NCBI GenBank assembly: GCA_044892505.1 | Contig: CM097882.1 | Coordinates: forward strand, 349,494,001 to 349,558,000 | Source: Schmidtea nova | Lineage: Eukaryota | DNA length: 64,000 nt | Reading direction: 5' to 3' | Shown here: in pieces, positions 1 through 61,191 of the stretch | Numbering within the stretch: position 1 is the stretch's first letter | Layout of the letters: the number at the start of each line of letters is the position of its first letter | Position numbers and translations under genes: made by a program | The notes under the pieces: model-generated | Told to the model about the DNA's origin: nothing | What the model saw: only the letters and a program-made list of their open reading frames with translations | Databases searched by the model: none

Positions 1-1712
1 CCATGTGCACAAGTTTATTAAGACCATTGGCTAGAACATTATTTGTGGAGAAGAATGGAGAGAGACAACTAACCAGTTAAGTTACAAAAATAACACAATC
101 GGATAATATGCTAAGAAAAATAGAAACGAGGAACCAAACAAAGAAAAACAATAATTGAAAGCGAAATAATCGAAAAAAATGAAAATATAACGATAAATCA
201 AATTTTCACGGAAAATAAAGACAGCAAGCAGTCAGTAATAAACGATACAACAAAAGTGGTGGGTTGTTGATCGTCAATATGACCTTGACGTTACTATGGC
301 TCGTATCAACAACTCAACATACAAAACATTGAAATAACCATCTTGTTGCCCGTCACTAAGTAACGTTGGTAATGCAACAAATGGGTGGGTATTCGCAATC
401 AGTGGTCGTCGTTAATTCGAAACTATGATTGTCTAAATATGTCCTGGGTCCAAGGGCTACCGATGCAAGGTTTATTGCCCATTTTGCCCCTTCTTACATG
501 ATTTATCTATAAGTATTCAACAAAATTTTATCGGCAATTCAACATAAGCATTCTACATAACTATAAATTTATTAATGCATCCAAATAAATTATTCCGAGC
601 ATCAAAACACTAACAAAACATTAAATTTGCTAATATTATAATTTATAATTATTAGTAGATAAAATATTTTAAAACCAAAACAAAAAAAAACTTTAGTTTG
701 AATTTTTAATTAAAAAGAATTTTTATTTGACGAATAACCGTGTTATTGATAAATTATAAAATAGTGACCTTATTTGTTTAAGTTTGCTAATATACATAAA
801 AAAAATAACCCGCAGTTCAAATTTCCTATCTAAAGTAAGATTAATATTTTACATTATTTTATTTTATCACAATTTTAAAGACCAGACCCACCAAGAAGGT
901 TGACATTGCCAGCAAAGACAACTCCAACATGCGCAGAACAAAAAGAAATCCCGAAACTCCATCACAGGTCAAGGACGACTATTAATTCGGACGAAAAAGA
1001 AAAAGTTTAAATTATTTAAGGAGAGTTATTTATCTCATCAAATTTTAGAAAAACTCGAAAAAAAAGAATATATTGGAACTCAGCACCACTAGAGCTGTAA
1101 AGAAAATCATTGTTGGAAGTGCCATTCTCCAACTGTGTCAATTTTTATTAATAAATTTTCAAACTCGTTTTTTTCGTATTTTTATGATTACGAATTTTAT
1201 TAATATTTTACTTTGACTATTAATGAATTAGAATTATTTTCCTCTATTGTTATTGTATAACAGTAATCTCTTATTAATTTATAGAATAATTAGAAGATAC
1301 CAGCTACATTTAAGAATATATAATATATATAAACCGTTTTTTCAGTACAGAGGGGGTTATTAATGAATTCAATCGGTTATTGTAAGTATAGGTATATAAA
1401 CTATAGGAGTTTTATGATACTGGACGTTATAGTTTACCAGTAGACAATTTTATGTATTCGTGTATAGGTGTTGTTGTTATTGCAATGGATAGTCTAATGA
1501 TAAAATGCGAATGCCTTTACAAATTCTGGATGTATGATGTTAACTAACATAACTGTAGATTTTCTGTATGAATTGTTAGGGTGTATGTTGCTAATGAATG
1601 TTATTGAATGATACCGTGTGATGTGTGTGTATTGTATTTTAAATAGATGTTGCTTGTGTTATTAGTATGAATGATGTTATTGAATGGTATGGGTGTTATG
1701 ATTTGCAAATAG

Positions 1713-4269: not shown

Positions 4270-4690
4270 AAAGACGAATGGTGTAAATGTTGCCATTTAG
4301 AAAGTAGTTGTTTCAAGCATAAAAAATGTACTAACAAAAAAGGACATGGAAAGAAAGTTTGTAAAATTCAAGGATGTTACAACTGTGGGAAAAAGGCACA
4401 TGGAAAGAAATTGTAGGAACGTCAAGAAACAACAGGAAGCCGAAATCAGCAAGACAGAATTGCTAACAAAATCAAACCAATCGATACGAAAGACGAACGA
4501 TACGAATATAAAGATGATAATAACCAACGAGCAGAAAGTTATTACGAAAATAAAATTCTTCAAAAAGATTCAGAGAACAAATCAGACAAACTCGTCAGCA
4601 TATACAAGTGTGTTACCAATGCGGAAAAAGGGAACATTTAGCGTTCCAGTGTATCAAAGCAAGAAATTAGGAGACAATAGATCAAAATAA
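4270..4690 (+). pseudogene. Degenerate retroelement Gag remnant with CCHC zinc knuckle(s)
   Basis: 4375-4414 reads CYNCGKK(G)HMERNC across one frameshift (C-x2-C-x4-H-x4-C). Two more H-x4-C half-knuckles lie just upstream (HLESSC, HGKKVC). Stops and frameshifts are present. Confidence 0.6.
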
Positions 4691-6343
4691 CAAAGAATAC
4701 GCAAATCAAGGAAACCAAAACCAGTTGAGGAATGTGAACGAAAGAAAAAATGACATAATTAACCAGATGGAAAATCAATCAAACAATCTCAAGAGAACAC
4801 AGAAAATCTTGAGTGAGAAAAATAAAAGCAGAGCTACAATTAACCTATATGAGGAAGTTAACCATGAGCGATGAACAAGAAATCAATATACAAAGAAAAA
4901 TAATAACAAGATTTCAAATCCAACTAACATCATCAATACAAGAGATAGCTTGATTGGAAGAAAAAAATTCGAAATCATCAAGAGTCGATATCAGAATACC
5001 TCGAGACAACCGGTAAAGCTATCACCCATAACGATGAGGTGGTGGAGAATAAAGTGTAAAAATAAAATAAAAAAAGAAAAAAGTGCAGCAATTGTCAATA
5101 GTGAAACCAATTCAATGTATAGGTAGCAATATAGCATTAATATTCGTAGTAGAAGCCAAAGAAATGTATATGACAGTAATAAAATAAATATATGTAAAAC
5201 CAATGTACACGTAATTTGAAATACAAAAAACAATGAAGCAAAAATCATCAAGCTCGCCTACTGTAAAACCCAGAACACGATAAATAAAACCACGTTACAA
5301 GAGAAGTAAGAACCTGAAAGAGGTAAATCAAGCACGAAGGAAGATCCATAAAGAAGATCCATAAAGAAAAAATTGTAGGATAATCTTTTTTTATTTTCTT
5401 AGGATTTTCTTTAGCTTGTAAAATTGAAAAATCGTAAAATAGTAAAATTCTCTTTTTCTATTTTCTTTTTGATAGTAATTGAAATTTTTAATTTCAGTAT
5501 TAGTGTTTATTCTTCTATCAGGTTTGATTGTAATCATAAATAATTAGTAAAAGCCATTACGAGAAATTAAATAAAATTTATTGATTCTTTTATTTGTAAT
5601 TTGGCTTACTATAGCAATTTGCTATAGCAAGCCAAATCCAAATTTATAATTAAAATTATAATAAAAATAAAAATTACAATTGTAATTAAAATCACAATGC
5701 ACGCAAATAATTAGGGGGGGGGGGTTCTGTGCCCAAAATACCATCAACAATAATAAAAACAACAACAATTGCTAATCATTCCTGTACACTAAAAATATCA
5801 AAGAAACTAATAAAAAAGATGAATCATTGCCATCATCATAATCATCACCCTCCGTATCCTGATAATCGTCACCCTAATCATCTGGACAGCATCCCAAGCA
5901 AGTACATTAAAGAGAAAACAATCAACAAACGAACAACCCGTCCAACCAAAAGAAAGGAAATCCCGAAATCATCGAAGTCAATCCACAATTCGATATACTC
6001 GAGAAATGAGAAACTTGGAATCAATACAACCCGAACTCAATAATCAAATCAAATATGAATTAAAAACGATCAATGAAATCAACCCACCAGACGAAAACAA
6101 ACCAGTAACGAGTCGAAGGATCCTACAAATGAACTAACAGTTACATTCAAACAATAACAATTATTGTAATTATCTGTATAAACCGATCACCTTAAGTGAT
6201 TCTTTCATGTTTATAGTTTTGACATTTATTGATGTAATCTAATTTATTTTGTTTAAATGTAAAGAGGAATGACATAATGATGAAATAGGTTTTATGTTGT
6301 ATAATTATTGACATTGCGGGACGCAATTTAAACGGGCTCGGTG

Positions 6344-7677
6344 TGTTGTTAAGCTGGCATAATCTAAAATAAATTTTGTTTAAATTCATCAAAAATTAAA
6401 TACATACAAAGGAAAACAAATTCAAAACACACGATAAGACGTTAAGCAGTAAAATAACACAAAGGAAAATAAAACAGAAAAATACAATAGTAGTCAAACG
6501 AACCGCGTCTTATTAATCGGTCGAGATAGGGTTGAATCTATAAAAAAGAAGCATTTTAAAAGAAAGCACATGAAAGACAGCACGAGAATTGAATGGGGAA
6601 GATCAGTGATTTTATAGTGAATACGAAAAGCATGATCAAAGAATAAATTGATATCAGAATAACGAAAACAATTTATTAAAAATTATAGAAATAAATCCTT
6701 ATTAAAATATCGTAAAAACAACAGAGATAGAAATGAAAATAGAATTAAAATTAAATTTGATTGTTTTAATCAATCAATTAATGTGCAAAAATCAATGGAT
6801 ACACACATCATTTAAAAGAATTAAAAACAAATATTTTGCAAAGTAAAACTTATAAAAAATAAATAAATACTCACTTATTAAAACTAATAAGCTTAAATCG
6901 TTATATCATTATGTAAACAACAACATATGTGGGCGTCAGTAGAATTAATATAAATATACACTGAAAAATAACAATCTAAACTTTCCTCGGCATTAATTTA
7001 CTTAGAGAAAATTTTTGATTTCGTTAGTTAGTTGTGTGGATCGATTTCAGAAGTAGGTATTGTGTTTATTTTAGCGAATTGTTGCCGGAGTAATTATTAT
7101 GAAATGTTTACAATAAAGTTTTGAGGTAAAACTTTGTTTTTGATTAATGGATTTCCTATTAAACTCTGCCTATAAAATAAATAGGTGCGTCGTCTGCGGT
7201 GAAAGTCACGAGGGTGAAGCCATATGGGTGGGGCTGTTTATAGTTCCATGGTATGGTGAGGATTAACTAAAATTATTGTGAATTAAATTTGGATTTTGGG
7301 TAATAGTAATTAAGGACATAATAATAGAGCAAACCTGAGGAAGTTAAGAGTAGTTATTCAATTATTTTTGAAAATGCATAATCGTAGATCTAAGGGAGAA
7401 TTATGTTATATAAAGTTTAAATAAAAATTATGTGACAGGACCGTAAATTAAATAGATGTGTAAGTCCTTCTATCGGCAGCAGGAACCCAAAAGAGAGAAC
7501 ATAGTGAGTAGTTTTGGTAACAAAGCTCACCTGCTCACTATATTCTCGCCACCTTGTACAGTACCAACATAGTTAGTTAGGGAATAACTATGGGTACACG
7601 AGTGAGGTAGTTCAATATTTATGAAGGGTTATGGGTAGTATTAATCTTTAAAGTCAATAATAATTTTTGTAACAACA
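6344..7677 (+). mobile_element. Long LTR (1334 bp), same family as 30552-32221
   Basis: Termini TGTTGTTA...TAACAACA form an 8-bp perfect inverted repeat. 6380-7140 and 7460-7606 align with the 30.5-32.2 kb copy. No TSD (ggtg vs tcca), so probably not a clean solo LTR. Confidence 0.7.
7501..7606 (+). ncRNA. Conserved structured RNA element in the LTR 3' region (copy 1), family unknown
   Basis: Stems ATAGTGAGTAG/CTGCTCACTAT, TTTG-GTAA-CAAA, CTTGTAC/GTACACG and CATAGTTA/TAACTATG. Compensatory changes relative to 32040-32145. G-U pairs and a GNRA loop indicate the + strand. Confidence 0.6.
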
Positions 7678-7937
7678 TCCATACTTACCAAAAATTAATT
7701 TAAGTTTTATTAACTTAATATAATTATGAATCATTACAGTTATACCAGTAATGTATGTGTATAAAAAACTGCTCAATTATCAATATATCTATTAATTTCG
7801 TCACGTTTGATCTTTTAATTTCATTTTTTAGATAATGAATCATTATTTTTCCTATTATAAATAAAAATTTGAAAATTCAATGCGAAAAGTTGGTGTTGAA
7901 TTCTAGAAATAGATTTTGTCTCCAAATTGTCAAAACC

Positions 7938-10790: not shown

Positions 10791-11634
10791 GGCTTGTATT
10801 TATTGGGTCAGTATTTTTTTACATTTTTGGTCAGTATTTTAAATAAATGGTTAGTACTTATATTAAAATGTCAGTACGTAATACAAATGGTCAGTATTAC
10901 AGCGATCAGTATAAAAACGATCAGTATTTTAATTAAAATGCAGATAGATATATTAATTGGTCAGTATTATAAATAAATGGTCAGAAATTAAAATTATGTA
11001 TCAGTATCTGCAAATATAAATGTCAGTAACAATAATTTTAAATAAAATTTAAAAAAACCTCATTTGGAATTTTATACTTATGTCTTATTTTTATTATTAT
11101 AATTAATTTTTATAAAAAGCTATATTGTCTCATTGATAGTTTAAATTAAAATATATTTTATAAGAAATTTATTGAAAATTCTAGTAATGTGGTTTAATGT
11201 ATAGGAGTCATTATTTTTCTTGTTGCAAATTTCAGAATTTTGTAAATTTAAATAATTTCTTTTTTATATGCACTAAGAATATTATTTTAATGAAGTAGCC
11301 AGTTTTGATTGCTATATTCTGAAAATAATCGCAGACTTTTGTCAAAATTACGCATTTTATAACAAAATCAGTGAATTGACATTAGTCAATTTGTCCGCTG
11401 TGTTACTCGAATGTGTAATGTTATTTAAATATTAAATCATCTCCGTTTAAGATAAAATTAAAAAAAATAACATAATTAAAATATATATTATAAATTCAAG
11501 TCTCCAACTTATTTTATACTAATATATTTGTTGTTCTTGATTATTAATGATGATTGTTTTATTTGTTTATTTCTGAAAAACCATTTTTGTTTATTATTTG
11601 TTTGTTTGAAATTTAAAATAATTGAAGGTTCAAA

Positions 11635-13440
11635 ATGGCATCAAATATAGACGAATATCTATCATCAGATGATGAAGAAATAAATGAGATTTTAACTATT
11701 AAAACTCGTAGGACAAAAATACAACACAAATGGAATATGGTTTCAACATTTAATAACAAAGAAGATGCTATGATTGTTATAAATTCAGAAGAAATTTGGA
11801 GTTTCCATTATCGGAATAATACGGCTGATGGAGGTAAAGCTTATTATCGATGTAACATGGTAAAAAGACGCGGACAACAATGCGAGGCTGGAATATATTT
11901 GCTGTTTAATAATAACAACGATAGTGTAACAATGTTTAGAGCAGAAAACAAGCATACGCATGGAAACTCACAGCAACAAACTTTAAAGCTTTCAAATCAG
12001 ATGAAAGAAGAAATTAAAAAGCTTTTTAAACTAAAAATAAAACCAAAAAAAATTTTAGAAATATTAAATGATAAAGGTTTAAAGCTTAAAAACAAGACAC
12101 AAGTTTCTAATTACTTAGTGCAATTAAGAAAAGAAGCATATGGGCCAGCCGCAATAAGACTTGGAGAATTTGAGCAGTGGTGTATTGATCATAGCGAAAT
12201 TCCAGATTCTGATGAATTACCTTTTGTGGTGTCACATCAAGTGAAATATTGTGATGAATTAGATGATGCAGAGGATGAATACAATGAGGGTTCGCACTTC
12301 AGAGTTTTAATTTCAACAAAACGTTTGCTTAAAAACTGTAGCATGTCGAACAAAATTCATATTGATGCCACTAATAAACTGGTATGGGAAGGTATGCCAG
12401 TTATAATTGTTGGAACTACAGATCTTGATCGTCATTTTCATCCGATTGGTATTGCTGTATGCACGAATGAAAAAAAAGCAGATTTTCAATTTATTTTTGA
12501 AACAATTAAGAAAATAAATGAAGAAATTGAATATTTAATATCAGATGCATCAAATGCCATTCGTAATGCATTCATCGCAGTATTTGGTGTGAATAAACGT
12601 TTAATTATGTGTTGGGCTCATATGCGACGCAATGTTACGAAAAAAGTTGAGTCTCTTGTTGAAAAAAGCATGAGAAAGGAAATAATAGATGACATCGATA
12701 CATTACAGTTAGCTTCAAGCAAGCAAATATTTGATAAAGCATTACCATTGTTTATCAAGAAATGGCTTCAGAAAAGCCAAACTGAGTTTATTAACTACAT
12801 GAAACTTCAATGGTTTACAACACATCAATATTGGTACGAAGGTGCTGCACAATACACGCCTTCTACGAACAACTCATTGGAATCTTTCAATTTAGTGGTA
12901 AAAAAAGAAGAAACATTTCGTGAACGACTACCACTCTCAAGATTTCTTGAATTAATCAATAAATCTGTAGCAAAGTGGTCAAACGAATATTCATCCAACA
13001 GTCGAATATTCAATACTTCAACTACAATTGAATTGTCCCAATGGAAAAAAGGATATCAATGGGCAAAAACTAATGTAAACGTCTCATCAGCAATTTCTAA
13101 CGATTCAATACAATATTTTTGTCCATCAAATCAGCAATGTAAGGCATCAGAAGAGGAAGCAGCATATGTATTGGAAATGCGTTGGAAAACATTTGATCAA
13201 TTCAAACGTAAAGGTTTCAAAGTTTGGATTATAAATCTGCCAAAAAAAGCAGAAAACTGGATGCATGGTTGCTGTACTTGTCCAGAATTCTTAAAGAAAT
13301 TTATATGTTTTCATATAATAGGTTTAGCTATTCGCTTAAAATATATTAAACCTCCTCCAGCAGCTAAACAAATACCAATAGGGCAAAAACGTTCGAGGGG
13401 AAGGCCAAAATTAGCAACGCGTGCGCTTTTAATTGATTAA
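11635..13440 (+). CDS. MULE transposase, 601 aa
   Basis: N-terminal YYRC...HTH zinc-finger-like motif, MULE DDE core (IHIDATNK, ISDASNAI, MCWAHM, TNNSLESFN), SWIM finger (CCTCPEFLKKFICFHI) and AT-hook-like RSRGRPK. No internal stops. Confidence 0.92.
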   Translation: MASNIDEYLSSDDEEINEILTIKTRRTKIQHKWNMVSTFNNKEDAMIVINSEEIWSFHYRNNTADGGKAYYRCNMVKRRGQQCEAGIYLLFNNNNDSVTMFRAENKHTHGNSQQQTLKLSNQMKEEIKKLFKLKIKPKKILEILNDKGLKLKNKTQVSNYLVQLRKEAYGPAAIRLGEFEQWCIDHSEIPDSDELPFVVSHQVKYCDELDDAEDEYNEGSHFRVLISTKRLLKNCSMSNKIHIDATNKLVWEGMPVIIVGTTDLDRHFHPIGIAVCTNEKKADFQFIFETIKKINEEIEYLISDASNAIRNAFIAVFGVNKRLIMCWAHMRRNVTKKVESLVEKSMRKEIIDDIDTLQLASSKQIFDKALPLFIKKWLQKSQTEFINYMKLQWFTTHQYWYEGAAQYTPSTNNSLESFNLVVKKEETFRERLPLSRFLELINKSVAKWSNEYSSNSRIFNTSTTIELSQWKKGYQWAKTNVNVSSAISNDSIQYFCPSNQQCKASEEEAAYVLEMRWKTFDQFKRKGFKVWIINLPKKAENWMHGCCTCPEFLKKFICFHIIGLAIRLKYIKPPPAAKQIPIGQKRSRGRPKLATRALLID

Positions 13441-13920: not shown

Positions 13921-13923
<3 letters not shown>

Positions 13924-14736
13924 GTAAGTTTCACAAAAGGCCAAGATACACTAAATGCAAACACCGAGCTATATTCTAAAAGTTTACATAGTGGTCATAT
14001 CCTCCCATGGAAAAGCTACGTTCCACTTCAACGCAAAATCGCATTACTAATAGGAGAAAGAAAAAGAGCCATAAGAAACTGTTCAGACGCAAACAAAATA
14101 CAAGAAACATTAGAAAACTTCAAAATACGATTCCTCCAAAATGGATACCCTGAAGACTTTGTAAAGAAACACTTCCTTAACGAACCATACCACAATAAAC
14201 GCAACAATAGGAAACGCCAGAAACACAATAACAATAACAAACACAAAACATATCTAAGATTACCTTTCCTAAATGACACTACAGCCAACAAAATCACCAA
14301 CATTTTTAATCAAACAGATTTGCCTATCCACATCCGTCCAACGTTCATAACCTCCGCACCGTTAAAATCACAACTCCGAAAGCCACCAATTTCCAACATC
14401 TCCAAACATAAATGTCTTTACCGTTCCACAACCCGATGCTTTTGCTTTTCCAAAAATATAGTATATAAACTTTCTTGTCAAAAATGTGACGCTACTTACA
14501 TAGGAGAAACACATAGAACTTTTCGCACCCGACTTAATGAACACACTAAAAACAAAACCAGTAATTATTACGAACACTGGGAGAAAGTACATAAAACAAC
14601 TCCATCTATAGAAGAAACAAAATGCCAGATTCTACAAGAGGGATTCAAAAATTCATTACAAAGATTAGCTTCCGAGACTTTTTACATAAAAAAATACAAA
14701 CCGTCCATCAACATTCAATTCGCACAAAAAAATTAA
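13921..14736 (+). CDS. PLE ORF C-terminal part: RT thumb region + GIY-YIG endonuclease (271 aa, no RT catalytic core)
   Basis: FLQNGYP, YLRLPF, IVYKLSCQKCDATYIGETHRTFRTRLNEH, YEHWEKVH, LASETFYI and PSIN are Penelope GIY-YIG hallmarks, including the CCHH motif. Confidence 0.88.
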
Positions 14737-20474: not shown

Positions 20475-23424
20475 TAGGGCTTGCAATACCGATTAACCGA
20501 TTTACCGGTAAACCGGTAAATTGCTAAAAAATTCATTACCGAAAAACCGGTAAATTCATTATTTTTTACTGGTTTTTTCGGTAAAAATTTAAACTTTATA
20601 TTATACAATATTTATCGTTTTGTTCCGTTCCGTGCATACTATTTTATAAGTAAATAGTTGAATTAAATATTTAAAATTAATAATTATACTATAATAAAGA
20701 AATTCGACTTTATTTATAAAGTAGTATGTACGGAACAAAACGAAAAATATTGTAAAATATAAAAAGTTTCACACTTCTGTTCAGTGGTCACAAGTCACAC
20801 TCGCACCTACGGAAATATAAAACAAATTTTTGTTTCTTGTTGTGTATGCAAATGCGTGAAATATTCATGCTTAATATTCTATTATTCTATACATATATAT
20901 GTTAAGTGCTCGCTCAAACCGTGTTAAGTGCTCGCTCAAACCGAAGTAGAAATTTTTTATTTGGTTGTAATATTCAAGTTATATACTGACAGAAACGAAT
21001 GTTTTTCGTGGAATTTCGAAATATTGAACAATTTTAACTGTTAAAATTGAAATACATAAATTGTTGCAGTATATAATTTATAATAAATATATCAAATTTT
21101 TTTTTAATATAATAGAACGTCTCATAAAATTTAATAAAGGTAAGGTAATACAAAAAATACTAATTTAATCGTTATTTAAAACCAATAAATATTTTAGCCA
21201 TCATGCGTACAAATTTAATATGGACCTATTTCAAAGAAACAAATAAGAATGAAGCCGTCTGCAATAGTTGTGCGAAACCGATAAAATGTGTTGGTGGTAG
21301 CACTAGCGGTTTGCATGCCCATCTTAAATCTCAGCATAAAATTAATCTATTGAAGAGAAAAGATGACGAGAGTGATATGGCATCATCTAGTCAAATTACA
21401 AACAAAGTCATCGCTAGCACTACAAACAATAATATATCAAATTTCTTTATAAAAAAGGTTGATGATTCACTTCCAGCTGTTCTCGCGCGTTTGACAGCAA
21501 AAGATAATATACCGTTTTATAGAGTTGCCACATCCTACGATATCCGAGTACTAATTAAAGCTAAATATAATAAAGAAGTACCAAGATCTTCCCATACGAT
21601 CAAAAAAATTGTAATGGACTATGGGGATAAAATTCGCAAACAAGTGGTTGAAGATTTATCCAACCGAAAAGCTAATAATAGTGTATTCAGTTTGACGTTT
21701 GACGAGTGGACGTCTGTTAAGAATCGACGATATATGAACATAAACGTTCATGGAAATGACCGCTTTTGGAACTTGGGTCTTGTGAGAGTACATGGTTCGA
21801 TGCCAGCTGATAAATGTATAACGCTGTTGCAAAATAAGTTGAATGAGTTCAAACTAACTTTAGACAACATTTTTTCAATAACAACTGATGGTGCTTCGGT
21901 GATGAAGAAAGTAGGTTCGTTGATTAATGCTAATCATCAATTGTGTTTAGCACACGGCATTCAGCTAGCCGTCATTAATGTTTTATATCGTAAAAAAGAC
22001 ATGAGCAATATTCATATAGAGGAAGTAAGTATTGTGGATGAAACAGAAACCGATTTAGAAAGTGAAGAAGGCATTTCCGAAGAAGATGAAGTGGGCTTTG
22101 AAGTAATTAATACGGTACCCACTTGTATTGATGTTCAACATGAAGAAATAAGTCCTCTAATAACAAAAATTAGAAAAGTTGTTGTATTGTTTCGCAGATC
22201 CCCTACAATGAACGACAATTTACAGAAGCATATTAAGGAAGAATTTAACAAAGAGCTATCCTTGATCATAGACTCAAAAACCAGATGGAATAGTCTTTGT
22301 GCAATGCTAGAGAGATTCTGCGAAGTTGAAAGTGCAATAAGAAAAAGTTTAATCGACATTAAATCTGAGTTAAGTTTCAGCGAAAATGAAGTTGTTTTAC
22401 TTAAAAATATAATTGCATCATTGCAACCAGTAAAACTTGCTGTGGAAGCACTATGTCGAGAAGACGTTAATTTATATGTTTCAGATATAACAATGAAATT
22501 TATGTTAGATGAGCTTAGTGTGCAAAACACACTTCTAAGTAAAGAACTTAAAGAATCTCTAATTATACGTATTAAAGAAAGGAGAAACATTTGTGCAGAT
22601 ATTTTGCACTATCTCCATGATCCAAATGTAATTAATGTAAGAATAAGAAATGACGATGATAATTATGAAATATTCAATAAAACAACAAAACCATTGATAA
22701 TAAAAAAAATCGTTGAATTAATTGAACGGTTTACGTTAAATGAAGAGTCTGAAACTGAAATTTCAGATTCAGAAACATGTACTTCAGATGAGCGTGCAAC
22801 TCCGTCAACATCAGCATCGCCAGCGTTGACAATGAAAGAAAAGCTGCAACTTACAATTCAGCAGAAGATGAATAAATCGAATTTGGAAAGTACTCGCCCA
22901 AAATCACCTAAAGGTAAAGGATTAGCAAACATTATTAAAAAGGAAATGGACTTTTTCCAAGAACAGAACATCCGAGGTAAATATTTAGAGAAAGCATTTC
23001 AAATGTTGTTGACTGTTCGACCGACAAGTGTCGAATCGGAGCGCGCGTTTTCAGCAGCCGGTCTGATCTGCACCAAGTTGAGGTCGAGCTTAAATGATAA
23101 CACGTTAAACACAATGTGTTTTTTAAGGCAGTATTTTAATCAAAAACAAGAGTTGAAATGAAGTTTTAATTTTTTTCTAATTTGTGTTTATACTTTTTTT
23201 ATATATTATAATGTTATGATTATGAATTAATAAAATAAAAGAATGAATTAATAAAATAACTGACTTGAATTTTATAAAACATATTATAAGTAATTAGTTT
23301 GAATAAAATATCAACTAACTAAAATACTCTCAAAATTACCGGTAAATTACCGGTTTACCGGTTTTTTCCACATAAATTACCGAATTACCGGTAATTGAAA
23401 AAGTCGATAAATTTGCAAGCCCTA
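20475..23424 (+). mobile_element. Complete hAT DNA transposon (2950 bp)
   Basis: Perfect 12-bp TIR TAGGGCTTGCAA/TTGCAAGCCCTA, perfect 8-bp TSD gtcaatat (20467-20474, 23425-23432), and subterminal ACCGG/CCGGT repeats at both ends. Confidence 0.95.
21203..23161 (+). CDS. hAT transposase with BED finger, 652 aa
   Basis: BED finger IWTYF...CNSC...STSGLHAHLKSQH; TFDEWTS; TTDGASVM; CLAHGIQL (CxxH); TRWNS; dimerisation motif PTSVESERAFSAAG. Uninterrupted. Confidence 0.95.
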   Translation: MRTNLIWTYFKETNKNEAVCNSCAKPIKCVGGSTSGLHAHLKSQHKINLLKRKDDESDMASSSQITNKVIASTTNNNISNFFIKKVDDSLPAVLARLTAKDNIPFYRVATSYDIRVLIKAKYNKEVPRSSHTIKKIVMDYGDKIRKQVVEDLSNRKANNSVFSLTFDEWTSVKNRRYMNINVHGNDRFWNLGLVRVHGSMPADKCITLLQNKLNEFKLTLDNIFSITTDGASVMKKVGSLINANHQLCLAHGIQLAVINVLYRKKDMSNIHIEEVSIVDETETDLESEEGISEEDEVGFEVINTVPTCIDVQHEEISPLITKIRKVVVLFRRSPTMNDNLQKHIKEEFNKELSLIIDSKTRWNSLCAMLERFCEVESAIRKSLIDIKSELSFSENEVVLLKNIIASLQPVKLAVEALCREDVNLYVSDITMKFMLDELSVQNTLLSKELKESLIIRIKERRNICADILHYLHDPNVINVRIRNDDDNYEIFNKTTKPLIIKKIVELIERFTLNEESETEISDSETCTSDERATPSTSASPALTMKEKLQLTIQQKMNKSNLESTRPKSPKGKGLANIIKKEMDFFQEQNIRGKYLEKAFQMLLTVRPTSVESERAFSAAGLICTKLRSSLNDNTLNTMCFLRQYFNQKQELK

Positions 23425-30551: not shown

Positions 30552-32221
30552 TGTTGGGCTGGTGAAATCGAAAATAAGATTTAATTAAAAATTATTAAAA
30601 ATTAAATACATACAAAGAAAAACGCACGACAAGACGTTAAGCTGTAAAATAACGCAAGGGAAAATAAAAACAGTTAAGTACAATAGTAGTCATACGAACC
30701 GCATCTTATAAGTCGGTCGAGATAGGGTTGAAGCGATAAAAAGAGGCATCTCAAAAGAGAGCACACAATTTGAGTGCAGGTCGGATTTACACACGAAGGA
30801 CCGCACAAGAATTGAATGAGGAAGATCAGTGCTTGTAAAGTAATTATGAAACGCATGAGCAAAGAATAAAATCAGTATCAGAATAAAGAAAATAATTTAT
30901 TAAAAATTATAGAATAAATTCCGATTGAAATATCGCAAAATTAACAGAGATATGAAAGAAAATAGATTTAAAATTAAATTGTTTTAATCAATAAATGCAC
31001 AATAAAACAATAGATACACACCTAATTTAACAGAATTAAAATCAAATATTTTCGAAAATAAATAAATCAAATTATAAAGTTAAATTTATAAAAGATAAAT
31101 AAATGTTCACTTATTAAAAGTAATAAGTAAGTTTAAATCGTTAATAAATTATGTAAATAACAAAATATATAAGCGACAGAAAAATTAGTATAAATAGATG
31201 CTGAAAATTCACAATCTAAACTTACTTGGCATTAATTTACTGAGAGAAAAAAAATTGGTTTTGATTTCGCCAGTCGTGTGGATCGATTCTGAACGGGTAT
31301 TTTGTGTTATCTTAGTGAGATTTCTTGGGTAAATTGTAATTCACTGGTCATAGTAAAGTTTTGAGGCTAATTTTTCCGAAAATAAATATTCGATGATGCG
31401 TATTATTGTGGTCATTATAAAAAATTGTTATATAGATATGCTTCCTATGCTGCTAACGCGGCGAGGGAGCCATAGTCGACGTCGTGGAGCCTCGTAGCTT
31501 CCACGGCGGTTATAATTTTTATAATTTATGTATCTGGGATTTTTCGGATATTTTTGAGGTTGCACATAATGAATCGTTACACATAGAGAATAGTTTTTGG
31601 TAATTGCGATAGTTTTTGAGAGTTTCATATAGTGATAGGATTTTTGAGTGTTGAACGATAGGTTTTGAGGTTTGCGCATTTTTCAGCGATAATTTTGGAG
31701 TTTTATAGGAATTTAACATCTCATGTAGCGATTTAATTTCAGAATTAAAATGTTAGCAAGACGAACTTGATCAATAGATTTTTTACGCATAGCGATGCAA
31801 CGACATAAAGGTGATTTTGAGTTTTGAACAGTTATACTTAGTAAAGGAGATTTTTGAGAGTTTTATAAATAAATATAATTTTAAGGTGCAGCTCATTATT
31901 TTGAGTTTTATATAGCGAAGGAGTTTGTAGTTAAATCAAATCTCCATTTAAAAGACGTTTTTATTTTTTTGGAAGTGGAGTATAAACATTGAGAGAATAA
32001 CGCGTAAGACCTAGCGGCAGCGAGAACGAGTGGAAATAAATGGGGAGTAGTTCCAGCGATAGAGCTTACCTGCCCATCATTTTTCAGCCCCCGCGCGCAG
32101 TTCCAACCTAACTAGATCGGGAATAGTTAGGGGCGCGCGAGTGAGACGATTTGCTTTTATGTATTTATTTATTTTTATTTATTTATTATTAATTATTTAA
32201 AACCCACCCATAAACCCAGCA
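30552..32221 (+). mobile_element. Solo LTR (1670 bp) inserted in a 13-bp minisatellite
   Basis: TGTTGGG...CCCAGCA termini, 4-bp TSD-like aaat/aact, satellite units on both sides, and homology to 6344-7677. Confidence 0.8.
32040..32145 (+). ncRNA. Conserved structured RNA element in the LTR 3' region (copy 2), family unknown
   Basis: CGCGCGC/GCGCGCG and CCTAACTA/TAGTTAGG stems, AGTTCCAA bulge, GATCGGGAA loop and GCGA tetraloop, all at the same spacing as copy 1. Confidence 0.6.
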
Positions 32222-36700: not shown

Positions 36701-37214
36701 NNNNNNNNNNNNNNNNNNNNNNNNNNNNNNNNNNNNNNNNNNNNNNNNNNNNNNNNNNNNNNNNNNNNNNNNNNNNNNNNNNNNNNNNNNNNNNNNNNNN
36801 NNNNNNNNNNNNNNNNNNNNNNNNNNNNNNNNNNNNNNNNNNNNNNNNNNNNNNNNNNNNNNNNNNNNNNNNNNNNNNNNNNNNNNNNNNNNNNNNNNNN
36901 NNNNNNNNNNNNNNNNNNNNNNNNNNNNNNNNNNNNNNNNNNACTCATGGTAATTTCGACGACTTACTCGCATCCTATTAAAAAGTTTCCAATACACAAA
37001 ATGTGCAGCACATTTTGCTCGACCAATCAAAGTTGTGAAAAATTTAAAATCTTTATTTGCACAGTGCAAAAATGGGGAAAATCAAAACTTCAATAAACAA
37101 AAAATTAAACAAAAATTATTTTTAGGGTGGAGGGGAGAGGGGAGCTCATGTGCGCGATAACTCATGGTGAAACAGGGTCTCACATCTCCCTACGTATAGG
37201 CACTAATAGCCAGC

Positions 37215-37790
37215 TCAGGGCAGCTTCTTCTACGGCTTTTGATAAAACTACTACAAACTCTTGAATAAGTCTCTACGGTAAAACTGTAGAGAATCTTAAA
37301 AAGCGCCTTAATTTAATGTTATGTAATTCAGAGTCAAACCTAATTACATACACGTCTAAACCAAATTTTAGGAATAATTATGATTGACGATGACTTTTTC
37401 TCCGTGTTGCTTAAACTTAAAACTCCAATCATCCCTTGTATTCTAGATACCTAGATTCCTTTATTACTAAATTCTAAGACGAGAATAGAGAACTTTAATA
37501 CAAGGAGTGAGTGTTTATAAGACCAAAGTGCTATAGTCTCTTAGGGGATAAAGAGAGTATTAAAGCTAAGTGTATAACATTAAAAGATGCTGTCCTCAAA
37601 CATCAGTCGTACATGAATTGTTATCATAATAATTCAATAATTTTAGTAGATACGTAAATATAGAATAATCCGTAAGAACCACTAACATTTACACACAAAA
37701 ATTCTACAATAGCCTTGACTAACTTGAACAACAAAAGGGTTGGATAAGTTAAAATGAGACCCTAGCTTATGGCCATTGTAGAGTGTTAAA
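37215..37790 (+). pseudogene. Polinton/Maverick-type PolB remnant, copy 1 (internally deleted)
   Basis: YYKLLN...LYGKTVENLKKRLNL, SNHPLYS, FIRPKCY, HQSYMNCY, ALTNLNNKR. Homologous to 58187-59560 but lacks the DTDS region. Confidence 0.8.
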
Positions 37791-43232: not shown

Positions 43233-45753
43233 CCGTCTTCCCTCGAATAAAGGGACCGGTCCTTCTATTCGATTTCTTTTTTTATATTGATATTTTAAAA
43301 ATTGGTAAAAAAATTGAATATAAGGACTTTTGAATATAAGGACTAGTCCTTATATTCTAATAATGGGACTGAAATTTAAAATTAATGGTAAATTGAATAT
43401 AAATATAAAGTTTATTCACTCGTTTTTCAATATATTAATTCATTTCAAGATACAAACTATGTAACATATTAATTTTTAAAAAAATTTTAAAGCTGTATTC
43501 GCTAAAAACAATAAAATAATAATATTATATAACAAAATAAAGAAGAATAACATAACCATTTTATAAAATAGAACTTTAAATTTAAAGTTTATACCCATAG
43601 TATTCTTGGCAACTTACAAAAGTTAATTTTTTCAAACTATTTTCCGCTTCATAAAGAACTTCATTTATTTTGGCATATTCTTCATTTAGTTCTATTAAGT
43701 TTATTTCTCATTTTTCATGTATTGAAACAGCTTTTAATTCCAAACGTGTACTCGTGCACTTACCTCTTAATATAGCATTGATATCCGTTTCATCATATAC
43801 ACCACCAAAAATCGTGTCTGTTTTTATTATATTAACTATTTTTGGTCCATAGATCTTTATCCATTCTACAAAATCCATTGCTTCATCATTTGGTATCAAA
43901 TTCATAATACATATAAAGAAACTGGTTTTTGGTATACTATTTACTGGCCAAAACCAATCTGAAGGATCCTCATCAAAATAACAATTTTGTTTCAAAACAG
44001 CTCCATACAGTTCTAACCACTCGTATGTATCCATTAATGGTGATAGCAACATTTTTAATGGGGTATGTAATTTTTCTACATTAAAGCTTTCCCTTGGGCC
44101 TATTCCACACACTGAAAAAGAATTTTGGACTTTTTGTTCTGTTTGTGCCTTGATCCAATTTAGAGTCCAATCTGAAACTTTAAGATACGATGGGATTTTT
44201 GGATTAGCTGATTTGGTTTGCAATTCATCATTTAACAGTGCACTTGCTATATAAGTGTCATATTGAGTACTATAAAACTCCTGAAAACTACGATTTTGCA
44301 CCACATCTAACGGCTGTAAAATTCCCGTTAAATTCGGTGGAATCAGTACTATAAATATATTCATTTTTTCCCACTTTTTGCTTTTATATAGTTTAACGTG
44401 AGGACCATAACTATCGATTAAAAGTAAAATTGGTTGTCGATAAAACGAAGTTTCTATTCTTTTTACGATGTTATTTTTAATGTAATTGTCCAAAATGTCG
44501 TCGTTCCACATCCCGGTTTTGTTGACGTCAACAAGACAACCCTCACTCACAGTCGGTTTATTTTTTAAATTCGAAAAAAGTATATGAGGTGGTAAAATTT
44601 TGCCTGCCATTGTTATACTAAATGTCACAGTACATCGCTTGTGAGCTGATGATGCCTTTCGAAGTAAGACATTATGAGAACCTTTTCGTGTTATAGTTGA
44701 TTTTTGTTCACTTTCAAAATAACGAGGTACTTGGTCCATATTGATAACATTATTTGGAGTAATATTTTTTTCCTCTAATATTTGAAAAATATTTTCGTGG
44801 AAGCTGGTAATGATGTTAAACACATTCTTAGGTAGCTAACGCGATGACGTCTGACGTCTGGAAACTAAATTAAACCTTTTTTAAATTTTCTAGCCAACCT
44901 TTAGTGATTTTAAAATCAACGTAGTCCTGCCTTTTATCTTTATCATATAAAATTGCAGATAAATCTTTAGCTTTAATTTGTATTTAACTATCTTTCACCT
45001 GTAGTTCATTTTTATTCCTTTCCGTCAGCCATTCAACTAATAACTGCTCCAGTTCTGCAAATTTCTCTTTTCGTCCACCACCTTCTAACCGCCTTAAGTT
45101 TTTTATTGAGACATCATGTTTGTTAAGCAGTATTTTAAAATCAGCTCTCTGACTATACCACCTTTTCTAATTTGTAACAGGAACTCCGGTTTCATTTGAA
45201 AGTTTTTGAAATCCATAGATGTCTTTTTTATATTTGCTTATAATATTTAGCTTTTGCTGAACTGTATATGATTTTCTTCCATTACTTTTATTTATTGACA
45301 TTCTAAAATAGGTTTAAAATAATAAATAATAGTAGCATAACTACTTATAATGTAAATGTTCAAATTTATGATATTTTACTTACATTGAAGCTTCTGCAGC
45401 TCAGGAACGCACAAGATTTTTGTTATTATATTTTATTAAAACTTGGATATTTCTTAATTCGATTTTTTAATATTAATACTTTAAAAATACCAGTCACATA
45501 TAATTTTGTTAAATATAAACAAAATCAAAAAGCATTTTGTTTGTTGGTTACGATTAAAATGTGAATTTGAATAAACGTTTTTTTTAATTTTAATTACAGT
45601 TTCAATTTGACAGATTGATATATCCGACAGGAAAAGATTTAAAGTTGTTGGACTTCCCTTGAATAAAAGGACAGGTCCTTCTTTTAAAATAAACGGTCCA
45701 GTGGTCCTATTATTTGAAAGGAAGGACCAGTCCTTTTATTCGAGGGAAGACGG
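43233..45753 (-). mobile_element. Full-length pogo-superfamily DD35D element (POGK/Passer-like), coding-disrupted
   Basis: ~33-bp TIRs ccgtcttccctcgaataaa[g/a]ggac[c/t]ggtccttc with TA TSDs at 43231-43232 and 45754-45755. Confidence 0.92.
43708..45301 (-). pseudogene. pogo transposase: Brinker/psq HTH + CENP-B HTH + DDE_1 + long C-terminal extension
   Basis: RKSYTVQQKLNII, GGGRK...LEQLLVEW, KGWL, NMDQVP, LLIDSYGPH, QPLDV with 35 residues between the 2nd and 3rd Asp. Three stops and one frameshift 5' of the 371-aa ORF. Confidence 0.9.
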
Positions 45754-56539: not shown

Positions 56540-57915
56540 GGTCTCATTATAATGTAAGACTTTCATTTCCCCCCACCCAAAGCCTTTTATTATCCAAGTT
56601 CGTTAAGGTTACTTTATGGTTCTTTTTAGTAAATAATTGATGACTGTTGCTAACTCTTCGTGACTGAGCAACAGAAACCGTTGAATTATTATAATAACAA
56701 TCCAGGTACGACTGATGTTTCAAGTAAGTACTCTTCAATGTTATACAGATAGTCTTAATGCTCTCTTTTCACCTAAAAGATTACAACACTTGGGCCTAAG
56801 AAAAGCCCACTCCTTGTGCTCAAGTTCTTTATTATCCTCTTTGAATTTTTCATTGACAGAATCAAGGTTTTTCGAGTACAAGGGATGATTTGAATTATAA
56901 TTCGATGAATCTAATAACCGAACAAAAGAGCCGAACAAAGAGTTTCCAACTTACAATTCTTAACCTCCATGAAGAAAGAGTCAGTATCACCAGAAACTCT
57001 ATTAATCTCGCAGTTGTATTCATTACAATATTGTTGTGATTCTTCATACTGGAGTTGATACATTTTAAGTTTAGATAGATCTAGTACAGTTTGATCAATG
57101 TAGCTGGGTCTATCTAAACACAAATAATCATTATTAAGAAGCACAGAGATAAGATCGTCGTCAATTTGTTAAGTTTTACAAAAAGGTTTTACAACGGTTT
57201 TCCCATAAAGACTATTATTTAAAAGTTTGTAATAGTTCTTATCTAAGCTGTAGAAGAAGCTGTCCAAAATTGAATGTTTGTGTCAATGATTTTCTTTAAA
57301 AATGGGTTTTTGATTGTACTAAACAGCCCAATGAACTCGTGTTATTTTAACACCCAAAGAAAGAAAATGCTTGAGAAGTCTCCAATGAACAACATAGTTG
57401 AACTTGAGATAATGCGTAAGCATCAGCTTCTCAACTTTTGAACCCGGAGCACACATTCTCTCTGCTGCAATCGGGAAATCATTTAATTTAACTTGAATTT
57501 CTGAAGGGATTTTAAGATCCACTTTAAAAGTCACACTTTATGTTAAAATAGCCAAATCGACATCCATTGATTTGTTTAATTAATTTAATTCATCTTTATT
57601 GATAATCCAAGAAAACTCACTATAAGGTAATTTTTGGCCAAAAGCCCACCCGTACAAATTAATAATATCTATATACAAAAGTTCAGTTATTCTGGAGGAT
57701 ACTACATGATGCTTGACAAATGTAAAACCACCACGGATCTCCGCTTCGAAAACATTATAAATCTCCATATCCTGGAGCAACTCAAGGCAATGAACGCAGA
57801 AGCCCACGACATACCTGGTTATCAAAAAATATTCAAAGGCTCAAGTCTATTTCCCTAAACTGATGAAAGAAATTGGCAAGAAGAAACACGCCAAGTTTAA
57901 GATAAACCTCTGCCA
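56540..57915 (-). pseudogene. Polinton/Maverick-type protein-primed PolB remnant, copy 2
   Basis: YLKLGVFLLANFF, PGMSW, EAEIRGG, DIINLYG, LDRPSYI...LDLSKLKMY, GDTDSF, KFKED, FLRPKC, LTNLDNKR; many frameshifts. Confidence 0.88.
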
Positions 57916-58186
57916 CTTAATCGATTAATTTGGGCAGATTTAGTTAAAACAAAATGGATTTCATTAACTTTGTTAATAACTCAATTACTTTCCTTTTCAT
58001 TAATTAAAGATATTTTTTCATTTAAAAGAATAATACCCTCATCTTAAAAGATATTACCCATTGGTCTTGTAGAGTTTGAAATGATGAATGATTGAAATTC
58101 ACGATCTTTTTCAAACTGTGCGTCAATACATAATTGTATTTTGATAGATTCATCTCTTTAATAACAGTATTTAATTTATTAATTAA

Positions 58187-59560
58187 ATAATGTTATCTAT
58201 GTCGTGGGCTACTGCGCTTATTACCTTGGATGAACCTATTGAGTTGCTCCAGGATATGGAAATTTATAATGTTTTAGAAGCGGACATCCGTGGTGGTTTG
58301 ACATTTGTCAACAAGCATCATGTAGTATCCTCCGGAATAACTGAATTTTTGTATATAGATATCCTTAATCTTTACGGATGGGCTTAATTTAAAAATTACC
58401 ATATAGTAATTTTAATTGGATCGCTGACCAAAATAAATTAAAATTAATTTATTAAATTAATGGATGGCGATTTGGCTATTTTAACCTATGACGTGACTTT
58501 TGAAGTGGATCTTGAAATCCCTTCAGAAATTCACGATACATTAAATAATTTACTCGTGGCAGCAGACAAAATCTGTGCTCTGGGTTCAAACGTTGAGAAG
58601 CGGATGCTTACGTATTATCACAAAATTGAACAATGTTGTTCATTGGAGGCTTCCCAAGCTTTTTTTCTTTCGTTAGGTGTTAAAATAACTCGAATTCATT
58701 GGGCTGACAGTAATAGCAGAAACCCATTTTTAAAAATTATATTGACGCAAATACTCAACTTAGGGAAGCTTCTTCTACGGCTTTAAATAAAAATTATTAT
58801 AAACTTTTAAATAATAGTCTCTGTGGAAAGACTAGAGAATCAAAAGAAACGACTCAATTTACTACTATGTAATTCAGTGTCAAAACTGATTGCATATACT
58901 TCCAAACCTACCTTTAGAAAATTTTATAAGATTTATGTTGACTTAAATTCTGTAATGCTTGATAAGGGCTCTGTATGTTTAGATAGACCTAGCTACATTG
59001 GTCAAACTGTACTGGATCGTTCTAAACTTAGAATGTATCAACTCTAGTATGAAGAATTACAACAATATCGTAATGAATTCAACTTCCAGATTAATATAGT
59101 ATCTGGTGATTTAGACTCTTTCTACTTGGAGGTTAGAAATTGTAAATTAGGTCTTTTTTCTCTGCTACGGTTAGAGATATGTTATTCGACACTTCCAATT
59201 ATGACCCAAATCATCCCTTGTACTCGAAAAACCTTGATTCTGTCATGAGAAAATTCAAATACGAGAAAAATGGACTCAAGTAAAAGGAGTGGGTGTTTCT
59301 AGACCTAAATGTTATTTAGTCTTTTCGGTGAAATGAGAGCATTAAGGCTAAGGGTATAACATTGAAGGATACTAAACTGAATCATCAGTCGTATCTGGAT
59401 TGTTATAATAATAATTCAATAGTTTCTGTTGCTCAGTCAAGAATAGTTAGTAAGAATCATCAACTATTTACTAATAAATATTCTAAGATTGCCTTGACTA
59501 ATCTTGATGACAAAAGACTTTGGGTGGGAAAAATAAAAGTCTTATGGACATTATAGGGGA
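58187..59560 (+). pseudogene. Polinton/Maverick-type PolB remnant, copy 3 (inverted relative to copy 2)
   Basis: MSWATAL, EADIRGG, DILNLYG, YYKLLNNSLCGKT, LDRPSYIG, GDLDSF, FLRPKCY, KAKG, ALTNLDDKR. Confidence 0.88.
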
Positions 59561-60093
59561 ATTTGTGTAGTTATGAAGATGCGTGAAGAAGAGGTTTTTA
59601 ATACTAAAACAATAAATTTATTTTATTAAACATTTGCCTCCCCACGCCATGGTGCAATTATTTTCAATTTACATTTGTGAAAGGAAAGATTTTTTCTAGT
59701 CTTCATTTATCGTGTTTATTCTTTTTAAATGTAATTAATATTTTTAAACGCGCTTATTATAAAATGTACATATAATGATCTTTTTAGGGTTTTCCTTTGG
59801 TGTTCATTAATAAAGGTTTATAGGTCTATGTTAATATGAATTTATTTAGCGAATACCGAAGTACGTCTAAGGAGTCATTTGGTCATTTGAATAAAAACGA
59901 AGGACTAATACTATCCTTTAAACGCCAAAGTCACAATTCTACTTACATCACTGCAAGACAGCCCCTTTGAGTTTTAATTGACTTTGTTAATAAACTCTTT
60001 TTTTATTTTATTTTTCCTGCTACACGACTGTTCTTTGAAATGTTTTAATTGTTATTGAAAATTATCAAAATTTTATTTATTTAGATCTCAGAA

Positions 60094-61191
60094 ATGACAT
60101 TAATGACACAAGATGGCAGTCAAGTGGCTGCAACTTTAATTATGCTCTCTGTGATTTGTGTGATCGGCGGTCTTGGGAACGGCTTGGTAATTATTGTTTA
60201 TACAAGGAAGCACGACCATTTGACAACGACTCTATTCATTAATATTCTCGCCATTACAGATTGTTTTACTTGTATAACTATTATCCCGATGACTATATAC
60301 ATTGAGTACTGGGAATGGGGAATTTCTAGTGATGTCCTCTGTAAATTATATTATTTTTTCAATAATTGTACGATTCCATTCAGTGCCTTTCTTATAAGTC
60401 TAATTGCCATTGACAGATACATTTGCATTTGCCATCCGTTTAATAAATTTATGACTCTTTTCAAGTCAAAGGTTTCAGTGGGTTTAGTATTAGCTGTTTC
60501 TGTTTTGTTGGGTATATCATCAATTTTTCAAGTGAAAATAATCCAAGGAAACCATTCAAATGATTTGACCAATTCCTACGAGTGTGCAGATGTTTCAAAA
60601 ATAATGAATGCCACAACGCCAGAAAAATTCTTTTTTAATATTGTCCAAAAAAGTCAACTAATTAGCTACACGATTTGCATAGTGTTGGTGATATGTCTCT
60701 ATGTGGCGATCTATTGTAAAGTTCTCCAGACAAGAAGAAAGAAGTTTATACTCAAAGGCCACAAAAATGCAAAAAAACCGTCGTATTTATGGGAAAGTAA
60801 ATCAAATTTGACAAATGTTCCAGATTTGGAGGAAAATCCTATCAAGTTACCGGATTGTGATATAATGTTGTCATCTTCAAAGTCAACACCAAATTCCAAA
60901 AGTTTCCTCACCGTACCGAAACCTGAACATCGCCGGATGTCCCTGAGAAGCATCTGTGACACACAAATATTTCAAAACTTTCGCACTGCGGCAATGCTAT
61001 CTGTCGTAGCGCTAATGTATATAATATCCTTTTTACCTGCGTTTGTCATGTTAAACGAACTTACCAAATTTTATATTCCGCTATTCTATATGTATTACTT
61101 GAACAATGCTGCTAATCCAATCATATATTGTTTTATGAATGTCCGCTTTCGGGAGGATATTAAAGCGATTGTAGAAGCTTTTAAAAAATAA
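60094..61191 (+). CDS. Class A (rhodopsin-like) GPCR, neuropeptide-receptor type, single coding exon, 365 aa
   Basis: Seven hydrophobic segments; TM1 GN, TM2 LAITD, TM3 C...DRY, ECL2 Cys (YECAD), TM6 SFLP, TM7 NPIIY + helix 8 (NVRFR). A tttttag acceptor lies 9 nt upstream of the ATG. Confidence 0.93.
   Translation: MTLMTQDGSQVAATLIMLSVICVIGGLGNGLVIIVYTRKHDHLTTTLFINILAITDCFTCITIIPMTIYIEYWEWGISSDVLCKLYYFFNNCTIPFSAFLISLIAIDRYICICHPFNKFMTLFKSKVSVGLVLAVSVLLGISSIFQVKIIQGNHSNDLTNSYECADVSKIMNATTPEKFFFNIVQKSQLISYTICIVLVICLYVAIYCKVLQTRRKKFILKGHKNAKKPSYLWESKSNLTNVPDLEENPIKLPDCDIMLSSSKSTPNSKSFLTVPKPEHRRMSLRSICDTQIFQNFRTAAMLSVVALMYIISFLPAFVMLNELTKFYIPLFYMYYLNNAANPIIYCFMNVRFREDIKAIVEAFKK

Follow-up and report, generated by a model that had tools for sequence, protein, structure and literature searches.

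The long terminal repeats (LTRs) of Burro-like retrotransposons carry a motif that, to judge from the paired substitutions in its stems, is almost certainly a real and strongly covarying RNA structure. Five helices covary across 26 family representatives, which bears out the proposal of a functional covarying RNA in these LTRs, originally made from two copies. With regard to its role, we lean towards a retrovirus-style U5 leader domain, which would help primer activation and serve as a licence for packaging or reverse transcription; among the functions named in the sequence-only reading, the broad guess of a priming or packaging signal fits best, with the fold probably in U5 upstream of a tRNA-Pro primer binding site (PBS).

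The window is the whole stretch of 64,000 nucleotides analysed here, from a 1.25-Gb AT-rich genome; judging by the type of element, the host is probably a planarian flatworm. Two homologous segments (7501-7606 and 32040-32145) had been noticed in it, and were recovered at these coordinates with identical spacing. Each lies, as had been supposed, within an LTR:

30552..32221, plus strand: solo LTR, TG...CA, 1670 bp, of a gag-only Burro-like family
6344..7690 (end approximate), plus strand: 3' LTR of a decayed gag-bearing element of a sister family, terminal CA eroded

The solo LTR is surrounded by a 13-bp minisatellite, its 4-bp flanks (AAAT/AACT) form an imperfect target-site duplication (TSD). 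Its closest counterparts here are four full elements that have a PBS and 4-bp TSDs, and it shows 89-91% identity to their paired LTRs; these elements measure 13.6-15.7 kb, have LTRs 99.8-100% identical and code only for a Gag ORF. The second LTR shares 74% identity with the first over 6346-7126; its decayed element has left gag remnants at 142-258 and 4273-4838, and a conserved pre-LTR box stands ahead of the LTR at 6316-6329. No purine-only polypurine tract was seen before the 3' LTR, where the conserved GCGGGACGCAATTT box is followed by a mixed G/C tract (window 6316-6343; E1-E4, B1-B3). Elsewhere, the window holds transposase ORFs of the MULE, hAT and DDE_1 types, a GIY-YIG and an integrase fragment, and a rhodopsin-type GPCR ORF without introns (jointly at 11626-13437, 21164-23158, 43711-44835, 13921-14733, 63165-63854 and 60085-61188), and a 3-kb imperfect inverted repeat of about 80% at 56548-59555, with a related direct copy at 37205-37737.

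The stems in which base pairing was compared between the two copies are the following:

7553-7559/7594-7600 and 32092-32098/32133-32139, plus strand: outer stems
7568-7575/7585-7592 and 32107-32114/32124-32131, plus strand: inner stems

The three double changes proposed for the outer stem and the three for the inner stem were all found, while the outer stem is not fully paired throughout, as the 7.5-kb copy has one T-C mismatch. Folded alone, the 7.5-kb copy reached a z of -3.42, matched by none of 200 shuffles, and the 32-kb copy did no better than its shuffles (z -1.57, 12 of 200 as good). Nor does the motif exceed the 5' part of the LTRs in identity between the two window LTRs (64 of 100 aligned bases versus 82-86 of about 99). 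Two sequences being insufficient to prove covariation, further copies were collected, and once other families are added the signal exceeds chance.

Searching the genome with patterns taken from the conserved loops returned 5608, 2041 and 433 sites (56, 5 and 0 in the control), and further patterns of this kind 281, 146, 80 and 58 (0, 0, 4 and 0 in the control); this one animal genome holds about 7,900 exact-pattern sites. Out of 280 centred loci, 171 were parsed by nine sequence anchors, the other 109 (decayed, truncated, chance, or members of the distant clade B described below) being left out. The parsed loci were reduced to 26 family medoids with a mean identity of 58%, aligned by the anchors and blind to pairing. 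A third family can be aligned with the window LTRs over the motif only, save for two loci with a neighbouring insertion.

The whole fold takes up about 200 nt at the 3' end of the LTRs, and the two stems reported earlier are one part of it; these stand as described, but the boundaries given for the motif do not, as it starts about 35 nt further upstream and reaches the LTR end. From 5' to 3' it comprises the P1 hairpin, an unpaired GAACCCG, the P2 hairpin, the P3-bulge-P4 unit, a UUUAUG box and a terminal hairpin with CCCUA. In the 32-kb copy the parts are:

32008..32018, plus strand: P1 hairpin remnant, 3 nt missing (other copies have a 7-nt UUCUANC loop)
32024..32030, plus strand: decayed site resembling a primer activation signal (PAS); in young copies GAACCCG, complementary to the tRNA-Pro T-arm
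32032..32085, plus strand: P2 hairpin, the 5' domain of the sequence-only reading, its conserved internal loop GARU / CACCUG flanked by helices P2b and P2c
32092..32139, plus strand: the stem-bulge-stem-loop reported earlier, with P3 outer stem, 8-nt AGUWCCAA bulge opposite one G, P4 inner stem and apical AGGG loop
32155..32221, plus strand: UUUAUG box and terminal U5 hairpin (U5 by likely position), with about 50 nt, including the CCCUA likely to be the partner of the apical loop, lost here

The second copy, and a third that had been overlooked, are laid out as follows:

7462..7660, plus strand: second fold copy, CCCUA eroded
7468-7474, plus strand: its P1 loop
7483-7489, plus strand: its PAS-like site, a 6/7 match
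7494-7547, plus strand: its P2
7553-7600, plus strand: its P3/P4
7618-7623, plus strand: its UUUAUG
257..470, minus strand: third decayed copy, of clade-B type, LTR end near 257
446-451, minus strand: PAS-like GGACCC of the third copy
365-374, minus strand: bulge of the third copy, which has a short apical loop

Both copies first noticed in the window are decayed, and the one at 32 kb no longer has CCCUA, a matching GAACCCG or a complete P1 loop. Upstream of P1, many medoids show a short GACC word 25-35 nt before the hairpin, and some families a GTAAG donor-like word directly before it.

In the alignment of the 26 medoids, the best five of 14,514 column pairs by MI-APC are all helix pairs. Paired cells and double changes amount to 80/102 and 18 in P1, 104/129 and 35 in P2b, 161/182 and 41 in P2c, 140/156 and 46 in the P3 outer stem, and 117/130 and 23 in the P4 inner stem, i.e. 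78-90% of cells paired per helix versus 12-61% in slid registers. A MAFFT alignment of 21 rows, made up of the two window copies and 19 of 20 medoids from a separate medoid set, led RNAalifold to the same fold, with double changes in 18 of 23 pairs. After manual inclusion of P1, double changes are found in 20 of 26 pairs and 88.8% of 545 cells are paired, compared to 69.2% in shuffled and 31-42% in slid controls, which keep the relatedness of the rows, the structure itself having been derived from this alignment. When the tested columns were withheld from tree building, tree-independent pairs pooled as means over 18 column pairs gave 35.2 compensatory cases versus 1.8 against, 21.9 being without change; for the outer stem the values were 13.5 versus 0.2. 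No single column pair was significant in this test, there being too few independent pairs for each. The sense strand is favoured because G-U cells outnumber A-C cells (79 versus 41).

These results weigh on the possibility that the conserved words are DNA or antisense signals, such as promoter elements, an E-box or an antisense splice donor, to which the stems would be secondary. By consensus, CACCTG qualifies as an E-box, and read in reverse complement it gives the donor CAG/GTGAG. However, five helices covary, a U-G pair is kept in 23 of the 26 medoids, B1-B3 contain no long antisense ORF, and the DNA-level reading of CACCTG fails because clade B replaces it with CACNTTT, so that we consider this explanation very unlikely.

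An AATAAA is present 70-190 nt upstream of P1 in 15 of the 26 medoids (shuffled mean 3.8, maximum 10, 1000 shuffles; 5-7 in neighbouring windows); in one of the 26 it lies after the stem but before the LTR end. U/GU-rich sequence follows immediately behind the poly(A) signal. By the LTR convention used to place U5, as given in the available part of PMC3601003, the fold is downstream of the poly(A) signal and therefore likely part of U5; it would then occur once, in the 5' leader, with the transcript ends presumably set by AATAAA. A TATA-like word in the 450 nt upstream is not conserved (3/26), and contigs from four sequencing runs yielded neither transcript ends nor splice joints that could be used.

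The region around the poly(A) signal also bears on a Rev/Rex-type response element, in which an LTR-encoded Arg-rich protein would bind the internal loops and drive the nuclear export or 3'-end processing of unspliced RNA. LTRs of the autonomous type have an ORF that ends Arg-rich and then Leu-rich right at AATAAA, with remnants in 15 of 26 medoids. One case seen in the LTR of B3 (L241:3728-4336, plus strand) is a 203-aa ORF with an Arg-rich, then Leu-rich end at the poly(A) signal, a layout that by eye is Rev/Rex-like. Large purine-rich internal loops suit Arg-rich peptides. The RexRE of HTLV-1 sits in the 3' LTR (PMC12789967, in the portion available). On the other hand, a fold placed after the poly(A) signal, with U/GU-rich sequence behind that signal, is probably not at the transcript 3' end, and the LTR ORF has neither a Pfam match above cut-off nor an Atlas match. 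As an explanation in its own right we hold such an element to be unlikely, although it would be compatible with a U5 leader, the two not being exclusive.

The LTR location brings to mind self-cleaving RNAs as well, since ribozymes are known in the LTRs of retrozymes (PMC4918200, accessible part), which resemble the carriers studied here in having a conserved RNA motif in the LTRs of non-autonomous elements. A new ribozyme class, cutting once per LTR and giving unit-length or circular RNA as plant retrozymes do, would agree with about 50 near-invariant positions, many of them unpaired and spread over several loops, and with a possible pseudoknot. We nevertheless regard it as highly improbable, because a cut in U5 would, by the established course of LTR replication, leave R and the PBS on separate pieces of RNA and so prevent the first strand transfer, and because Rfam 15 contains no match: the window has 0 matches at gathering score, in agreement with the earlier description of an unassigned RNA, and a search of three loci at E<=10 gave eight weak matches (best E 0.39), none of them a ribozyme or a priming signal, in keeping with the remark that by eye the motif does not fit hammerhead, HDV, twister or pistol. 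The position after the poly(A) signal also speaks against cleavage, as does the variable base after the bulge A (G, U, A or C), unlike the G+1 of the hairpin ribozyme. Unlike in retrozymes, moreover, there is no hammerhead match, a Gag ORF is present and autonomous elements share the fold.

It had been suggested that full elements be checked for a tRNA-type PBS, and one was found: beyond the 5' LTRs come 18 nt complementary to the 3' end of the host's tRNA-Pro(UGG). It is present after 20 of the 171 parsed loci, 12 of them with 0 mismatches, and all 20 correspond to tRNA-Pro; the loci without it are presumably solo or 3' LTRs. The PBS begins 5-6 nt past the LTR end after a TAAATT spacer (L010, L013, L138, L223 and others), while the usual LTR-PBS spacer, of 1-3 nt, is shorter. 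The tRNA-Pro(UGG) genes form a 308-bp tandem array (L200, G000:C1:459.6 Mb), with 1106 pattern matches genome-wide, and one unit of the array has a changed anticodon and is called tRNA-Ile.

The analogy with hepadnaviral epsilon that had been drawn does not hold up, since elements with a full tRNA PBS have no need of protein priming of the epsilon type. Epsilon consists of a lower stem, a one-sided bulge, an upper stem and an apical loop, and is similar to P3-bulge-P4 in shape alone; unlike epsilon, the bulge here has 8 nt opposite a G, and Rfam, as far as it includes epsilon, gives no match.

Both the fold and its PAS-like site are located 210-260 nt from the PBS. In HIV-1 a PAS in U5 pairs with nucleotides 48-55 of the tRNA (PMC3675109, PMC1865047 and PMC11181671, each in its available part), and a PAS has been predicted for HTLV-1, which is likewise primed by tRNA-Pro (PMC11251516, available part). 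Here, GAACCCG pairs with the tRNA-Pro T-arm at 7 of 7 positions in 20 of the 26 medoids and at >=6/7 in 23, an A-to-G variant being tolerated as G-U. Among the 6-mers of the tRNA outside its PBS-paired end, those most widely complemented in the motif belong to the 5' T-arm (19/26) and the D-loop (15/26); shuffled tRNAs had an equally shared 6-mer (19/26) in 450 of 3000 cases and attained the T-arm and the D-loop level together in 76 of 3000. T-loops commonly contain GGUUC. The case for a PAS depends on the match sitting at the expected place and surviving in clade B, where a GAACCC-like word is kept in 24 of 28 loci. As a short word complementary to the 5' T-arm of the primer GAACCCG is like a PAS, although the match may be due to chance. 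This complementarity is left unexplained by a Rev/Rex-type element. In the predicted folds of young copies, the 5' stretch on the GAACCCG side can pair with the PBS in three of four, a pairing that would mask the PAS-like stretch before arrival of the tRNA.

The resemblance to HIV-1, one of predicted layout, consists of a structured U5 upstream of an 18-nt tRNA PBS and a short U5 word complementary to the 5' T-arm of the primer. Unlike in HIV-1, the element is of Gypsy type, its primer is tRNA-Pro, four hairpins take the place of one three-way junction, and the PAS-like word is predicted to be unpaired between hairpins; there is no sequence likeness, and the distance of the PAS-like word from the PBS is larger than the PAS-PBS distances in the U5 of HIV-1.

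Within the fold, a pseudoknot between CC of the bulge and GG of the loop had been envisaged. It shows no covariation, the only variable position pairing in 8 of 26 medoids; the CC and GG columns themselves are uninformative because they are near-invariant. That the GGGAA loop is a universal core is not supported, as it is missing in all 28 clade-B loci. The apical loop is more likely to pair with the downstream CCCUA than with the bulge: 172 of 208 cells are complementary, with changes at the two flanking positions, whose values were reached by 11 and 63 of 2000 shuffles and involve few independent events (2.8 versus 0). The UAGGG/CCCUA core is paired by selection of the loci, as it served as a parsing anchor. 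Among 51 loci found via other anchors, both halves are present in 24, with the first flank paired in 22 (13 of the same U-G type) and the second in 8; in clade B the halves occur in 0 and 1 of 28 loci. A contact of CUA in the P1 loop with UAG of P2 was unsupported (one double change in 130 cells). The bulge CCAA could also pair with UUGG at the PBS start, both being invariant.

The complementarity between the apical loop and CCCUA would allow the fold to act mainly in packaging and dimerisation, with UAGGG of one genome pairing with CCCUA of another, the loops binding Gag and the tRNA match being incidental. Gag-only and RT-less elements retain the fold, the complementarity shows some covariation in its flanks, and both halves are missing together in clade B. 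Retroviral psi lies mostly downstream of the PBS, which weighs against this role, and the contact is missing in clade B, yet GAACCC and the bulge are kept there. Whereas retroviral dimer initiation has a self-complementary loop with a GC dyad, the apical loop is not self-complementary: (N)UAGGGA is not palindromic and its complement is a separate CCCUA. In favour of the role, retroviral dimerisation starts by kissing loops (PMC12789967, in the text available). On balance we think a mainly packaging or dimerisation function quite unlikely. A related comparison is offered by Ty1 and Ty3, LTR retrotransposons whose cis signals serve priming, dimerisation and packaging with proteins in trans (PMC11381356, in its available part), and whose 5' cis RNA features a pseudoknot, a bipartite PBS and kissing loops. 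These signals involve tRNAi-Met and are mostly found in R-U5-gag or at the two ends of the RNA, unlike the fold described here, which lies entirely within the LTR and shows covariation in many families.

The carriers are giant, Burro-like elements of the Gypsy group, together with derivatives that lack RT or have only gag; all of them keep the fold. Apart from the four full relatives of the solo LTR they measure about 26-30 kb, and LTR pairs of carriers overall are 98.7-100% identical. In B1 (about 26 kb), Gag has CCHC knuckles, and a mononegavirus-like fusion protein is encoded between gag and protease; PR, RT, RNase H and integrase are present too, along with ankyrin repeats and a MATH/TRAF ORF. 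The Burro-like assignment follows from a length of >20 kb, the order gag-env-PR-RT-RH-IN, and ankyrin and MATH domains; both layout and domain content of B1 are as described for planarian Burro/GYPSM1 in the available part of PMC6431247, which is silent on LTR RNA structure, primer and non-autonomous derivatives. BIR, Bcl-2-like and dUTPase domains had no Pfam match in B1, B5 or the first ORF of B3, some of these having been identified by HHpred in the same source, as far as its available text goes. B5 has the order gag-env-PR-ankyrin and no RT. An element at L247-L249 (G000:C1:4620001-4645000), with LTRs identical over the compared stretch and an open 4113-aa gag-env-protease-ankyrin frame, has no match to RT, RNase H or integrase and is an RT-less, env-bearing non-autonomous form. 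In the gag-only elements (L031-L038), a leader of 5-7 kb that includes a 56-bp tandem array precedes a Gag of about 1000 aa, the frame of which is open in many copies; matches of the gag search are close copies only. The B4 region proved to be a segmental duplication and was left out.

Clade B is a distant LTR clade (the 281 pattern sites, with 0 in the control; L359-L388; window 257-470, minus strand) that retains the P1 loop, GAACCC and the bulge, has an apical loop of about 3 nt and CACNTTT in place of CACCTG, and is without CCCUA. No PBS-bearing copy was seen among its 30 search loci. Beyond this genome, 46 metagenome and three viral-contig pattern matches were obtained, none with >=2 of five further anchors, and they are read as chance.

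The motif family is apparently undescribed. Its structure was found neither in the literature searched nor in Rfam 15, the available parts of PMC8532177, PMC11410931, PMC13524379, PMC3185550 and PMC11381356 giving no account of it; the original Burro paper and its supplements may bear on this. In the usual description, conservation in LTRs is confined to the ends, the TATA box and the poly(A) signal (PMC3601003, available part), and very few LTR retrotransposons have had the RNA structure of their genomes mapped (PMC11381356, in the portion accessible).

For the U5 leader domain that we favour, the following course may be proposed. Transcripts would end about 20-30 nt past AATAAA, so that the fold would belong to U5 and occur a single time, in the 5' leader. 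Annealing of tRNA-Pro to the PBS would free the 5' strand of the T-arm, and the unpaired GAACCCG between P1 and P2 would pair with the freed CGGGUUC, as the PAS of HIV-1 does. Gag/NC or RT, supplied in cis or in trans, would have their binding sites in two near-invariant loops, GARU/CACCUG and the bulge AGUWCCAA, a role suggested by the retention of these loops in elements that need RT or Gag in trans. In clade A, apical UAGGG and CCCUA of the terminal hairpin would pair and compact the domain beside the PBS, a contact that the tRNA D-loop, which has the same CUAGGG, could displace. With little confidence, we also entertain the idea that Burro elements are invertebrate "complex retroviruses", in which one U5 domain would serve as PAS and also as the response element of a Rev/Rex-like, Arg-rich protein encoded in the LTR, while parasites that are gag-only or lack RT would spread by keeping the RNA licence.

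Dozens of families at 58% identity provide a covariation-backed model of a cis signal of about 200 nt, and the motif is a sensitive marker for annotating Burro-like repeats. If the PAS reading is true, a retroviral regulatory step would also operate in an env-bearing Gypsy lineage, and the motif would explain the mobilisation of its large non-autonomous derivatives.
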